Shown here piece after piece: positions 11,001 through 25,495 of a DNA stretch of 64,000 nucleotides. The stretch lies in NCBI RefSeq assembly GCF_964204645.1, contig NC_134025.1, positions 15,659,001 to 15,723,000 of the forward strand, in the 5' to 3' direction. Source of the stretch: Tubulanus polymorphus (taxonomy: Eukaryota > Animalia > Nemertea). The notes beneath the pieces are model-generated. The model was not told where the DNA came from. It searched no databases and saw nothing but the letters and a program-made list of their open reading frames with translations. The first letter of the stretch is position 1, and every line of letters begins with the position of its first letter. A program made the translations under genes and the position numbers.

Positions 11001-12104
11001 ATGGTAACTCAAGAAGATAAATATACTTATGTAGTACATTATAGAATGTTAAAGTTTTATCTAAAACAAGGAATGGTTCTAAAAAAAGTACATAGATATA
11101 TTTCATTTAGTCAATCTAAGTGGTTAGAAAAATATATAGATTTTAACACCAAACAGAGAACTGAAGCTAAAACTGATTTCGAGAAAGATTTCTTCAAGTT
11201 AATGAATAATGCATTCTATGGTAAGACTTGTGAAAATATTAGTTATAATGATATTGAGTTAGTTAGTAATGGTAAAAGAATTAGACATTTACAAGTATAT
11301 CCTAAGTTCATTGGTAACAGAATATTTGATGAAAATTTAGCCGCAGTTAAAATGAGAAGAACATCCATGAAATTTAATAAACCAATCTATGTTGGCGCTT
11401 CAGTTTTAGAATTATCAAAATTACTAATGTATGAATTCTATTATAATGTATTACAACCACTTTTTGGAGAAATACATATAGAAATATTATATTTTGATAC
11501 AGATGCTTACATATTAAAGATAAAAACTAATAACATAACTGATGATTTAAAAACATTAAAACATCATTTTGATTTCAGTAACTATCCTAGAAATCATGAA
11601 TTGTTTAGCAATGATAATAAAAAAGTTCCCGGTAAATTCAAAGATGAATTAGGTGGTGAAGAAATGATTGAATTCATCGGTATTAGATCTAAAATGTATT
11701 CATATAAAACTTAAGAACATGAAGCTAAAAAGTTAAAAGGAATAACCAAAAGTGTAGTAGAAAAGAATATTAATTTCAAAGATTACATCAATTGTATATT
11801 CAATGAAGAAGTTAGAAAACATAAGATGAAATGTTTAAGATCTGAAGATCATGAAATGTTTATTGAAGAAATTGAAAAGATAAGTCTAAACCCATTTGAT
11901 GGTAAAAGATATATTTTAGATGATGGAATTCATACAGTTGCTTATGGTTGCAATTTAGATGAATACTTAAAATTTAAAAGAGAAGAAACAAAAGAGAACG
12001 AGATAATGAAAAGAATTCTAACGTGTTCATCAAATTTTAATAAAAATATGTATTATAAATGGAGAGTAAACAAACACACAGTGAGAACAATAAATCATTT
12101 CTAG
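8011..12104 (+). pseudogene. polB: Protein-primed family B DNA polymerase (pPolB) with N-terminal C2H2 fingers and endonuclease VII-like insert; disrupted
   Basis: Exo motifs [23 protein letters not shown]; polymerase motifs [38 protein letters not shown]...[20 protein letters not shown]. Frameshifts near 9090 and 9580, premature TAA at 11712. Confidence 0.93.
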
Positions 12105-12412
12105 ATAGAATAAAAGATACTTCAAATGTCAAATCAGTAGATTATAAATTTAAGAAGTTAAAAGAATTAATAATCCATAAGAAATATCTAATTACAAATA
12201 TTGATACAGTAACTAACAAATATGGAGATAAATTAGTTATACACGTAGAATATGAAGGATTAAAAGGAAATACATATAAATTCAGAACATATTTACCGGA
12301 TAGATTTCATAGATTATCAAGTGAAGACTTAGAAGAATTATGTTCTGGTTGTTTCTATTTCGTATACAAAGGTAAGAATGAAAAAGGGCACCATGAAATA
12401 GATTTCGAATAA
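12059..12412 (+). CDS. Small viral protein, possibly OB-fold ssDNA-binding protein
   Basis: Intact 117-aa beta-rich ORF directly after pPolB (KLKEL...TNKYG...YLPDRF...FVYKG). SSB function is inferred. Confidence 0.45.
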   Translation: MESKQTHSENNKSFLDRIKDTSNVKSVDYKFKKLKELIIHKKYLITNIDTVTNKYGDKLVIHVEYEGLKGNTYKFRTYLPDRFHRLSSEDLEELCSGCFYFVYKGKNEKGHHEIDFE

Positions 12413-12429
12413 GAAAATATGTAAAATAA

Positions 12430-13188
12430 ATGGTAGAATTAAAAGAATACAGAATATTTGTAGATTCTAGAAAACTTACAAATTATAAATCTCATAATTT
12501 ACTAGTTCAATTAGATAGAGAATTCAAGAATTGTGTAGATTTAAAATTAGTTAATATAAGTTTATGTAATTCTTTTTACAATGTATTGGATAAAACTGTT
12601 GAACATAGAGTCTTTTTAATTCATGATAGAAATAAAAGTAAATGGTTTCATCTTTATCTTAAACCAGGATTATATAATTTAGATACATTAGCGCAGGAAA
12701 TTAATAGAAGAGCTCGGTTGAAAATGGGTGCATCTGCTGGATTTGGATTAAGACTGATTAAAAGTGATAGCTCCGATAAAATAAGAATGAAATTAGGTAA
12801 TGAAGATCAACATCAATTTCTAGTTAGAAAACCTTTAGCTAAAATTTTAGGAATAACCCCAGATGTAAGGATACGCAATGCTGATGCTCCACCAAATATA
12901 ATGCCTTTTACACACTTTTATATTTATTGCAAATTAATCGATCCTACAAAAACATTCGAAGCAACTAAAGATATAACTTGTAATTCTGGTTTAATTAACA
13001 TTTTACCATTGAAGAATGTTAAAGAATTTGGAACGCAAATAAATTATAATTTAACAGAATGTGATTTCAAACCATGCATTCCTCGTTTTAATAATTTTAA
13101 ATTAGAAATTAGAAATCACAATGGATACTTAATTGATTTAAATAATTTCCCTGTAATTTATGAATTAGTTATAAGATGTAGAGAGTAA
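12430..13188 (+). CDS. Minor capsid protein (penton, single jelly-roll), putative
   Basis: 252 aa with IFVDSR N-terminus, LKPGLYN...LAQEIN, LAKILGI, YIYCKLI, LEIRNHNG.LIDLNN.P..ELVI C-terminus, typical of Polinton/virophage pentons. Confidence 0.7.
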   Translation: MVELKEYRIFVDSRKLTNYKSHNLLVQLDREFKNCVDLKLVNISLCNSFYNVLDKTVEHRVFLIHDRNKSKWFHLYLKPGLYNLDTLAQEINRRARLKMGASAGFGLRLIKSDSSDKIRMKLGNEDQHQFLVRKPLAKILGITPDVRIRNADAPPNIMPFTHFYIYCKLIDPTKTFEATKDITCNSGLINILPLKNVKEFGTQINYNLTECDFKPCIPRFNNFKLEIRNHNGYLIDLNNFPVIYELVIRCRE

Positions 13189-13205
13189 TTTTTTTCACTA
13201 TATAA

Positions 13206-13550
13206 ATGAATATAACTGTTGGACCGAGTATATGTTTTGGTTTTGATTTTAAACATGGCAAAGAAATGAGAATTAAACTAAATGATGTAATTACTGATAT
13301 AAAAAGTAAATCATTTAACAATTCATCAATGATTAATAAAGAAAATTATAATAAAGAAAAAGTAATTGATTTAATTAAATCACCTTTAGAATATTATGAT
13401 TTAAATGAAGATGGAATTATCGATGATATTAAAAACATATTATCCAAAATATATGATAATCATAAAAGTAGTAATGAAATAAATGTTGAATTAATCATCA
13501 CTAAGATAACTAAATATTTTGATGATAGTAATTTTTTGATAAATAAATGA
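13206..13550 (+). CDS. Hypothetical viral protein
   Basis: Intact 114-aa ORF in the gene array, preceded by T7-N7-TAAATG. Confidence 0.65.
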   Translation: MNITVGPSICFGFDFKHGKEMRIKLNDVITDIKSKSFNNSSMINKENYNKEKVIDLIKSPLEYYDLNEDGIIDDIKNILSKIYDNHKSSNEINVELIITKITKYFDDSNFLINK

Positions 13551-23405: not shown

Positions 23406-23480
23406 CAATATTAAAACAGATATATACAATCGGGATTACATTTTTGATATCTATATTACAAAGACCTTCAGTGTTATAAT

Positions 23481-24209
23481 TTATAATTTTGTCCAGAATT
23501 CTTTAATCACTGGATTGTTTCCAATAATTTCTTCAATTTCTGGTAAATATCTGACTACTTCACTAAATGCTAATCCTAATATTTTGAATTTTTCATATTT
23601 TATTAATCTACCTACTCTTCTCAGTTTTCTTTCAAAGCCGGCACTGATATCTATGTTCTTTTTAACCCACAGCCCCCAAGAAATCCCCTCATTTTCTTTA
23701 TCAAACATTGAAAACCCTATATTTAGATAACCCCCGAAAATGATGTGGTCCCATAGGTGATTTGCTTTTCTATTTAATATGGTTTTATAACTTTTTTTTA
23801 AGATATCAGTAATTTCAGCAAATGAAATAACTTCTACACTTTGTATTTCCAGAAAGTTTAAATGATCTGTGTCAATGATTAATTTAGATTTTAAAAACTC
23901 GTTCAACTCTTCTCCACTCATTTTCTTAGTTTTCGATTCTTTGAGTCCCAACAGCAATTTAAGTCGCATTGCTGGTAATTTTGGTAATTGTAGTTCGCGC
24001 GGTAATTGTTTATTATGTATTACATCACTCAAAATTTTCACCATTTCTTGATGATAGTCCAAATGTTCTTGTAATTTTTGTGAAGTTTGTTCGTCAATTA
24101 CGAGAGTTTTATCCTCCATTTCTATTGATTCCTGTGTTTCACTATCCATCGTTTCTGGTTCCTCTTCCGATGGTTGACTTGGAATTTCTGGTTGTTCTCT
24201 GTATTCCAT
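23481..24209 (-). CDS. Hypothetical protein, acidic N-terminus, helical C-terminus (loosely DUF3102-like)
   Basis: Intact 242-aa ORF; G..L.....G.SW..WVKKN..IS....RKLRRV pattern. Domain call is tentative. Confidence 0.6.
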   Translation of the reverse strand: MEYREQPEIPSQPSEEEPETMDSETQESIEMEDKTLVIDEQTSQKLQEHLDYHQEMVKILSDVIHNKQLPRELQLPKLPAMRLKLLLGLKESKTKKMSGEELNEFLKSKLIIDTDHLNFLEIQSVEVISFAEITDILKKSYKTILNRKANHLWDHIIFGGYLNIGFSMFDKENEGISWGLWVKKNIDISAGFERKLRRVGRLIKYEKFKILGLAFSEVVRYLPEIEEIIGNNPVIKEFWTKL

Positions 24210-24620
24210 TTTAATCTAAAAGATGTCGTGAAAATGAATTACTGTACTTAAATATGTTTAAAGGTTTCCCTACTTCATAATATATGTACTTACATTTAGA
24301 TTTAGAACTGTAAACTGTGTTTTGAGAGAGAATATCCAATACGTAGTATGTATGTGAAAGTTGATTTCTAACTGCCGACGTGGCGCACGTTCAACCAAAC
24401 TAATTACTTCTGCATGTTTGCCTGGATTGTAACAGATGTTCCTTTGTGATGTAATTGATTAATCCTTTTCAACTGAAATAGCACATTCGATCAATATTCA
24501 AATGAGGTGCGCCCCATTCAAGTGAATATGAAATACGGCACAGATGTTTTTGTAAACAACCTAATACAATTACATATAGGCGGTTTGACATAGATCGAGA
24601 GTAACCGGTTTTCTAAGCGC

Positions 24621-25274
24621 TTAAGCTCCAACGTATTTTTCATTATGTGTTGAATTCCATAATTCAACAAATGTCTTTGCTTTATCCAGTTGATCTAAAT
24701 ATAACTGTAAATCTAGTTTATTAGATTTAATTATATTTTCTTTCTTTTCTAAAGGCCTTAAATTTTTCCAGTTCCATATTAGCTTCTTATTATAATCATC
24801 ACTCATGTCAAATTTAGAAATCGGCAACACATGATCAATATGAAAGTATTCACCATAATTATCTATATTCATTTTATCATCGAATTGATATATTATCCAT
24901 GATATGAAAAATTCATCTGAACAACCCAATAAATTAGATAGTGTTTCTGAATGCGTTTCTTTGTTGAATAATTGTGTTAATCTAGATCTTAAACATTGTT
25001 TTAATCTAAAATTAAGATCTGTTTGATATCTTTCTCTCATATATTCTGTCATATAATCATTATAAGCTTCTCTATTATCATCTCGATATTGTTTGGTATA
25101 TAGTTTAGTACAAGTTTTACAGCAATATTGAAAACCATCTTTGCTAATCTTACGCTTATTAAATTCTGTTATAGCTAATTTATCTATTTCACATTTAGAA
25201 CACTTCTTGTAGTATATGTTTATGACACCAGTGTTATTTGTAATATTGATAGTTTGTAGTTGTTCTGATTCCAT
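24621..25274 (-). CDS. HNH endonuclease with N-terminal zinc ribbon
   Basis: CSKC...CKTC, helical linker, FHIDHVLP...WKNLRPLEKKENIIKSNK (H-N-N type); intact 217 aa. Confidence 0.85.
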   Translation of the reverse strand: MESEQLQTINITNNTGVINIYYKKCSKCEIDKLAITEFNKRKISKDGFQYCCKTCTKLYTKQYRDDNREAYNDYMTEYMRERYQTDLNFRLKQCLRSRLTQLFNKETHSETLSNLLGCSDEFFISWIIYQFDDKMNIDNYGEYFHIDHVLPISKFDMSDDYNKKLIWNWKNLRPLEKKENIIKSNKLDLQLYLDQLDKAKTFVELWNSTHNEKYVGA

Positions 25275-25495
25275 TTATTATACATATTTTTTTTACTAAA
25301 TTGATTTTAGAAGTTCAATGATTTATATCATGTATTATTTCAATCACACTTTACTTACACTTTTAATGTTTAAAATCTAACTCATACAAATATGAATATT
25401 GAAATAATGTTGTAGATATATACTTTTATATTGAATAATTTGTCAATTTAAATGTTATTCATTTATATTTTATTCATGTATATGAATGTTTTAAG

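Follow-up and report, generated by a model that had tools for sequence, protein, structure and literature searches.

A Conserved Promoter-Like Start Motif in a Polinton Clade with a Decayed Copy in Tubulanus polymorphus

A Decayed Polinton in the Nemertean Genome

The window analyzed here is a stretch of 64,000 nucleotides from the nemertean Tubulanus polymorphus (contig NC_134025.1, positions 15,659,001 to 15,723,000; coordinates below are counted within the window), and it contains an integrated Polinton/Maverick at 7370..25683. This block of 18,314 bp with 24.6% GC is a decayed copy from a multicopy family, recognized by its DNA polymerase B of the protein-primed type (pPolB), rve integrase, A32-type ATPase, capsid and penton folds, inverted ends, and the 6-bp target-site duplication GGGGTG found on the forward strand at 7364..7369 on its left and at 25684..25689 on its right. 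Most of its genes open with TAAATG, embedded in a longer motif that recurs in related elements and resembles the late promoters of large DNA viruses; this motif is the subject of the present report.

The left arm is read on the plus strand. It begins with pPolB in four pieces (8011..12104; Pfam DNA_pol_B_2 2.7e-15), which carries an endonuclease-VII-like insert (Endonuclease_7 7.4e-5) and has the variant start context TAAAATG. Two genes with an A-run form of the start motif follow, a 117-aa gene at 12059-12412 (motif 12047..12061) and the penton or minor capsid protein at 12430..13188 (motif 12418..12432), an intact open reading frame whose predicted structure (pLDDT 92.4) has the mavirus penton as its top PDB match (E 2.4e-10). 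The T-run form precedes the genes 13206-13550 (motif 13194..13208), 13547-13768 (13535..13549), 13793-14215 (13781..13795), and 14237-14662 (14225..14239), as well as the interrupted gene 14679-15968 (14667..14681), for which no family was matched and which has a homologue of 442 aa in the related locus L003. A T-run variant ending in TTTAATG (15965..15987) stands before the interrupted gene 15985-17437, and another T-run motif (17438..17460) lies at the expected start of the major capsid protein, where this copy has no ATG. The capsid frame itself (17458..18705) is predicted to adopt a double jelly-roll type fold (model pLDDT 85), and the arm ends with the gene 18738-19259, again with the A-run form (18726..18740).

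The right arm is read on the minus strand. The interrupted A32-type packaging ATPase (19766..20284; Pfam Pox_A32 1.1e-6) has a TAAATG start, the TAA of which is also the stop codon of the integrase; 20284 is the true ATPase start, as the relatives L001, L003, and L005 open with the same peptide. The integrase, likewise interrupted (20285..21376; Pfam rve 8.5e-8), has the variant start context TTAATG, and its homologue in L001 combines rve with a chromodomain. Further start motifs lie at 21733..21747, before the interrupted gene 21735-21368 (backed by a homologue in L005), at 22328..22342 in the T-run form before the gene 22330-21728, and at 22845..22859 in the A-run form before a 71-aa partial duplicate of the terminal gene. 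A 242-aa gene at 23481..24209 lacks the motif. The terminal gene (24621..25274) is zinc-finger/HNH-like, and its TAAATG start in the A-run form (25272-25286) falls within the terminal inverted repeat; its look-alikes in a protein atlas are viral hypothetical proteins, HNH clusters at 0.87-0.88 serve as leads only, and the L001 homologue has a weak HNH match (0.0055).

Decay is evident in pPolB, the integrase, the ATPase, and three other genes, all of which are interrupted, besides the capsid frame without its ATG. The gene set is that of Maverick-Polintons and adintoviruses, with which the element shares pPolB, rve, the A32 ATPase, a double jelly-roll capsid, penton, inverted ends, a 6-bp duplication, and a length within 15-20 kb (PMC8502044; bioRxiv 10.64898/2026.06.19.733378; PMC11131425). 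It differs in its ends, which are long fold-back palindromes. As for the adenovirus-type cysteine protease of group 1 Maverick-Polintons and adenain-bearing adintoviruses, the scanned proteins of the window and of L003 gave no Pfam protease match, with several genes remaining without a family. The nearest named homologues are a bivalve capsid (38%) and coral pPolBs (41%). The capsid-frame model matches iridovirus, PBCV-1, faustovirus, and mavirus capsids (E 2e-17 to 2e-11), with that of mavirus only at rank 44 by fold, and the window capsid reading frame has no match to the Pfam family Sputnik_MCP, whereas the virophage contig L059 matches it at 2e-93. The capsid is thus not of the virophage (Virophaviricetes) type. 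As a separate observation, L059 (5478-7214; Sputnik-type capsid) has TAAATG at 4/7 starts.

The Start Motif within the Element

TAAATG opens 13/17 of the ATG starts of the element compared with 42/726 of its other ATGs (p 9e-13), and the comparison restricted to the sense strand gives 13/17 against 27/417 (p 9e-12). The 17 starts leave out one of the 18 annotated ones, that of the capsid gene, where the expected position lacks an ATG; a TAAATG at 9089, which opens a fragment within the broken pPolB, was counted as background. A sequence-only reading of this stretch had placed TAAATG at twelve positions, all of which are present on the strands it gave, and had missed a thirteenth, at 21735 on the minus strand. 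Its expectation that the motif exceeds the composition background is likewise borne out, both by these counts and by the AT-rich sister loci described below, which have 0/10.

All 13 TAAATG starts in the window are in fact ATAAATG with a T at -12, that is, 12 bases before the A of the ATG. The T-run form, with 6-9 T placed 6-7 nt before the start motif, accounts for 6/13 TAAATG starts and 0/42 background occurrences; a looser A-run pattern describes 7/13 and 1/42, respectively. The earlier reading had reported a T-run class (13206, 13793, 14237, 14679, 22330, 15985, and 17458) and an A-run string (12059, 18738, and 22847). The members of the T-run class hold up, with 13547 also fitting, and the A-run string is exact, so that both forms do exist; they are, however, not two separate classes but the two ends of one motif, A-rich near -18..-16, with T at -12 and ATAAATG at the start. 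The T-run at the 22330 start is not a gene end, since the closest upstream open reading frame stops 301 nt away. Intergenic gaps in the left arm are short, as that reading had described, with 16-32 nt at 8/10 junctions; the remaining 2 junctions are overlaps.

Conservation among Relatives and a Second Dialect

In an alignment search with the capsid, metagenome contigs yielded 43 loci, genome contigs 2, and viral contigs no relative. In a capsid tree of 27 rows, limited to pieces with at least 180 aligned residues, the window sits in a clade of 16 rows (support 98/97). Start counts for this clade cover 16 loci, with L021 assigned by a separate capsid tree: TAAATG is found at 58/70 called starts, compared with 92/2294 other ATGs, and at 48/58 starts when near-duplicates are removed. 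Gene order and strand vary among these loci, and the motif is retained throughout these changes. The GC content of the clade ranges from 20% to 44%, and loci of 36-44% GC keep TAAATG at 9/11 starts, whereas AT-rich sister loci (29-31% GC) have it at 0/10; composition therefore does not explain the motif.

The sister group has TAAATG at 0/32 starts. It shows instead TATA, often as TATAG, within 16 nt of the ATG at 19/32 starts compared with 67/828 other ATGs, a word found among 393 tested. The loci concerned are L015, L017, L018, L020, L024, and L026, and their starts resemble asfarvirus-type late initiators. Nested in this sister group, L023 and L025 nevertheless use TAAATG (4/6 starts), which indicates that the promoter dialect changed more than once. 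It should be noted that the figure for 20 more distant loci (TAAATG at 2/80) is weak, as these loci are decayed and their starts poorly called. A distant Polinton, L099 (1-9034; pPolB 35% identical), which surfaced in an unrelated search, has TAAATG at 7/7 starts; the pPolB relative L267 has it at none of its listed starts. A conserved promoter-like signal in this Polinton clade, with a second dialect in its sisters, is thus real.

Evidence for a Promoter Role

Pooling 65 starts, T at -12 is found in 58/65, compared with 24/86 non-start occurrences of TAAATG (p 1e-14), accompanied by A at -18 in 45, A at -4 in 57, and G at +4 in 45. A scoring matrix was trained on 52 starts of relatives, with the window data held out, and was run over both strands of the element. 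Of the top 15 sites, 14 are window starts, including the variant start at 15985 (rank 6) and the capsid start without ATG (rank 10); the remaining four starts rank 28, 45, 79, and 237.

Head-to-head gene pairs indicate at which level the motif is read. TAAATG is present on both sides in 7/9 such pairs of the clade, and six of these seven are 19-30 nt apart (19 nt in L001, 24 in L012 and L013, 28 in L009 and L010, and 30 in L011, with 72 in L003); the pairs of L008 and L016 have it on one side. Two-sided pairs exclude a shared polycistronic leader for the genes concerned, and with only 19-30 nt between the genes, transcripts that begin in the gap would have next to no untranslated leader.

These data also bear on the idea that the motif is a translation signal, either a start context or a stop-restart coupling, on longer host-made mRNAs, to which we assign a slim chance. 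The motif does abut the ATG, with G at +4 in 45/65, and at 20284 its TAA is the integrase stop. Among the relatives' starts, however, the TAA acts as upstream stop in only 1/52, and stop-restart coupling is rejected on this count. Animal start contexts usually prefer a purine at -3, and a purine is indeed found in 26/32 sister starts, whereas the clade has T at this base in 60/70. The fixed bases at -12 and -18, together with the divergent pairs, point to recognition of DNA. The T-run is not a splice acceptor either, as G is nearly absent (0-2%) from -7..-4 and the AG is lacking; this reading was likewise rejected.

AATAAA is not avoided in coding DNA (61 observed vs 60.9 expected; the pPolB region has 14), which weakly fits transcription outside the host 3'-processing. 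The sequence-only reading had also invoked TTTTTNT as an early terminator, which we could not substantiate: the word is not enriched at free gene ends, with 4/41 compared with 5/25 for ends followed by a start. It is depleted on the coding strand (2 vs 11.2 expected; in the clade, 22 vs 53), and also on the other strand (56 vs 78). The depletion is driven by runs of at least 6 T (14 vs 38.6), with T5-N-T alone at 18 vs 30.5, and A runs of at least 7 are reduced as well (39 vs 74); we therefore rejected it as specific terminator evidence, as it mostly reflects a general loss of long T and A runs in coding DNA.

Taken from the sequence, the motif behaves as a leaderless viral promoter or initiator of the poxvirus post-replicative kind, a reading that these data support. 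Genes of the presumed structural block are preceded more often by the T-rich form (a mean of 3.5 vs 1.9 T in six positions; 34 vs 24 starts, p 7e-4). The association of the T-run with structural genes claimed earlier thus persists as a trend, which may echo that between late and intermediate promoters, but not as a strict split: the window penton and the capsid genes of L007, L013, and L023 have the A-rich form.

Comparison with Large DNA Viruses and Their Satellites

Late promoters of vaccinia have TAAAT(G) over the start codon and a conserved T at the 10th base upstream, whereas its intermediate promoters have TAAA with an A/T-rich run further upstream, then T (PMC11980589); the viral polymerase itself makes contact with TAAA, which occupies -1 to +3 (PMC12917281). 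The fixed T at -12 of the element corresponds to -10 in vaccinia numbering and matches the published description within one base. The two systems share TAAAT(G) overlapping the start, a T about 10 nt upstream, and T-rich as well as A-rich upstream forms (PMC11980589, PMC12917281, PMC5294985, PMC4542343). They differ in that the A-rich core of the element is about 2-4 nt closer than in intermediate promoters, in its strong A before TAAATG, and in its lack of early terminators.

Both TAAATG and TATA(G) are known as late initiators of large viruses (PMC5294985, PMC11788076). A 19-base T-run promoter pattern found 0 viral contigs. Two looser patterns gave at least 120 loci (13/64 parts scanned; 40 with short flanks) and 87 loci, which include the distant Polinton, iridovirus-like contigs, and other giant-virus contigs; none was recognized as a poxvirus, part of them being checked by Pfam. 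About 40% of the genes in L046, L166-L179, L197, and L199 start with AATAAATG, for which we found no published description; from their families MSV199, DUF5757, and DUF5770 we take these contigs to be invertebrate-iridovirus-like. The two signals differ in emphasis: in four iridovirus-like loci that were not picked by pattern, AATAAATG is present at 28/29 starts and T at -12 at 12/29, compared with 26/52 and 45/52, respectively, in the clade. Independently of the promoters, L018 (9373-9846) and L030 (1000-1524), both outside the clade of the window, share a gene with iridovirus-like contigs (29% identity, E 3e-19 and 6e-10).

In protists and algae, virophages and elements related to them have been described as having promoters that match those of their helpers (PMC8547959, PMC11788076, bioRxiv 10.1101/2025.10.09.676808, 10.64898/2026.07.28.741278). 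Like the window element, mavirus and the endogenous mavirus-like elements (EMALEs), with Cafeteria roenbergensis virus (CroV), are pPolB/rve elements that integrate, encode a capsid of their own, and show a motif close to the start of most genes; they differ in their protist host, TCTA motif, virophage-type capsid, and known helper CroV. EMALE types differ among each other in promoter motif, which has been read as reflecting different helpers (PMC8547959). Two features of a virophage lifestyle are seen in the element, namely a start-proximal motif at most genes that resembles a large-virus late promoter, and a gene set in which no RNA polymerase was found, neither as a Pfam match nor as a tblastn match with proteins of ten giant-virus loci, including Rpb1 and Rpb5. 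A tie between small polinton-like genomes and poxviruses in animals is known from entomopoxvirus-associated polinton-like viruses; these differ in having about 12 kb and divergent capsids, and they were found in occlusion bodies, in a report whose main text does not treat promoters (PMC11296320).

A search covering main texts, and subscription journals only in small part, found no published report of promoter evidence for helper dependence in animal Polintons. The main texts of PMC8502044, PMC11131425, PMC10748475, and two 2026 preprints (one of them bioRxiv 10.64898/2026.06.19.733378) do not use the word "promoter"; their supplements could hold motif analyses.

Which Polymerase Reads the Motif?

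We consider it probable that most genes of the element start with leaderless promoters that a co-infecting large DNA virus reads with its RNA polymerase, and that the lineage is helper-dependent in the manner of virophages. The co-infecting virus would supply transcription machinery of the Nucleocytoviricota post-replicative type, and, by analogy with vaccinia, transcription of almost all genes would begin within TAAAT, so that a templated leader would be short or absent. The element would copy itself with pPolB, would be packaged by its own capsid, penton, and ATPase, and would enter the host genome via the rve integrase. The dialect of the element is closest to the published poxvirus intermediate/late promoter; if there is a helper, a poxvirus-like one and an iridovirus-like or other one are nearly balanced, with a slight lean to the latter. 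The proposal of poxvirus-late-like, helper-read promoters in the sequence-only reading is supported in its general part, by the fixed T, the use of both strands of short gaps, the survival of the motif through gene shuffling and GC change, and a gene set in which no polymerase was found; a poxvirus as the specific helper is not established, given the iridovirus-like contigs with 44/112.

Several observations weigh against dependence on such a helper, or against a poxvirus in that role. Helper transcription is deduced from DNA sequence, and the loci compared are kin, so that pooled p-values overstate their independence. The starts of pPolB (rank 45), the ATPase (79), the integrase (28), and the gene at 24209 (237) score poorly with the relatives' matrix. 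Poxvirus transcription is cytoplasmic and the integrated copy is nuclear, so that reactivation would need an extra step; this difficulty is eased if the helper is an iridovirus, since iridoviruses have a nuclear phase (PMC5294985). The likeness to poxviruses is drawn from published promoter descriptions, with a doubt of one base arising from the wording of a review, and TAAATG is not poxvirus-specific, being found at 44/112 starts of iridovirus-like contigs and at 4-6 of 10-16 in other giant-virus contigs. No gene shared with a poxvirus was found, and none shared with the ten giant-virus loci. Finally, an adintovirus is transcribed in cavefish tissues, and the passages on it mention no helper (PMC8502044).

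This last observation also favors the view that host RNA polymerase II recognizes the motif as a compact initiator and makes near-leaderless nuclear mRNAs from an autonomous element whose poxvirus likeness is convergence on easily melted A/T DNA, as do integration into nuclear DNA at many insertion sites and the chromodomain seen in the integrase family (L001 homologue). We regard this as unlikely: head-to-head gaps of 19-30 nt are too small for two conventional core promoters, AATAAA is not avoided, the initiator overlaps the ATG in poxvirus fashion, and relatives switch wholesale between TAAATG and TATA(G), the two late initiators known from large viruses (PMC5294985, PMC11788076). That the pattern is a by-product of 75% A+T has hardly any probability left. 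Of all triplets that precede an ATG in the element, TAA is the most frequent (55/744), yet the enrichment over the element's own ATGs, the out-of-sample prediction of starts by the relatives' matrix, and the persistence of the motif at 36-44% GC with its absence in sisters of 29-31% GC refute it. Yeast pGKL-type elements, which have protein-primed ends, suggest a further source: instead of a lytic helper, a cytoplasmic plasmid or virus-like element that persists in the host could provide a poxvirus-like polymerase, with no antiviral role. These linear, AT-rich elements use a poxvirus-like TAAAN initiator, slippage-made poly(A) leaders, and their own pox-related polymerase, and for the window element no helper was identified; they differ in encoding RNA polymerase and capping enzyme themselves and in being cytoplasmic, whereas the window element integrates and has capsid genes (PMC6211774). 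We hold such a supplier to be quite improbable, as no element of this kind was seen, no upstream conserved sequence was found beyond the A/T core, and the retained capsid, penton, and ATPase fit a route through virions.

Returning to transcription by a co-infecting virus, a bolder version would see the TAAATG clade as heritable parasites of poxvirus-lineage invertebrate viruses, silent until late machinery is supplied, then multiplying at the cost of the virus and protecting the host, with sisters having switched dialect (TAAATG or TATAG) to follow other helpers. In this full form we think it rather doubtful; the inducible antiviral action suggested by the sequence-only reading would be a further step beyond helper dependence, and the present copy, with its broken pPolB, integrase, ATPase, and capsid start, could not act antivirally alone. 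Animal Polintons could be viruses in their own right, transposons, or parasites that depend on a helper; this is a standing question, and their virions and helpers are almost unknown. A 20-base promoter shared with large cytoplasmic DNA viruses makes the part concerning helpers testable. If confirmed, helper dependence would represent a variant of the virophage strategy, probably in animals, and would carry that strategy beyond protists into animals, perhaps together with an inherited antiviral defence. The two dialects suggest that known Polintons, which number in the thousands, might be sorted according to the virus on which each depends, and, if this holds, Polinton promoters could predict undescribed large DNA viruses of their hosts.

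Termini, Copies, and Flanking Repeats

Both ends of the element are fold-back palindromes that begin at the terminal base and differ in their inner sequences. The left one (7370..7778) has a DNA fold z of -20.8, with 0/100 shuffles equally stable, and the right one (25496..25683), with a stem of about 90 bp, a z of -21.1, with 0/200 shuffles equally stable. The terminal inverted repeat proper (7703..8028, plus strand) is 81% identical to 25256-25570; at each end, the region upstream of the first gene lies within it. Such long fold-back ends recall the opened hairpin telomeres of poxviruses or parvoviruses; the fold-back ends are known from the window copy, as related contigs stop short of their ends. 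PMC8502044 and PMC10748475 do not use the word "hairpin".

A whole-genome read run labelled as the same species (X6), 12% of which was used, covers the whole element. Only 2,463/96,909 placed reads are 99% alike, and at the element boundaries 7370 and 25683, 1097 and 946 reads, respectively, run out into mixed flanks; the few closely matching reads and the mixed flanks at both ends show that the element belongs to a multicopy family. The reads also reveal copies in which the right palindrome is shorter (joint 25558-25621). The insertion site is one arm of a host fold-back element, with 33/33 bases matching across the insert (7338-7370 / 25684-25767), and a perfect palindrome of 58 bp lies on the host side of the right junction (25684-25741). 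The host DNA is eukaryotic and repeat-rich: the flanks contain a tyrosine-recombinase retrotransposon (reverse transcriptase and integrase), a gag-bearing retroelement, an rva_4 integrase, and a 118-bp satellite, which together occupy 44600-48303, 36792-39419, 31372-32292, 42496-44044, and 51185-64000.

In the stretch 22350-23481 of the element, the terminal gene is partly duplicated together with its promoter, and a GC-richer repeat occurs three times near 23050-23410; reads show rearranged forms around this stretch. The close relative L003 encodes a deoxynucleoside kinase (10340-10981), a Pfam family also present in the pPolB homologue P0165; 10 homologues of the L003 kinase were found, none of them pointing to a helper. 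The gap between the converging genes of the window (19260-19765) contains a direct duplication of 240 nt, and imperfect hairpins lie in the corresponding gaps of L001 (3720-3837) and L005 (3163-3275); these structures are possible candidates for a termination or origin signal.

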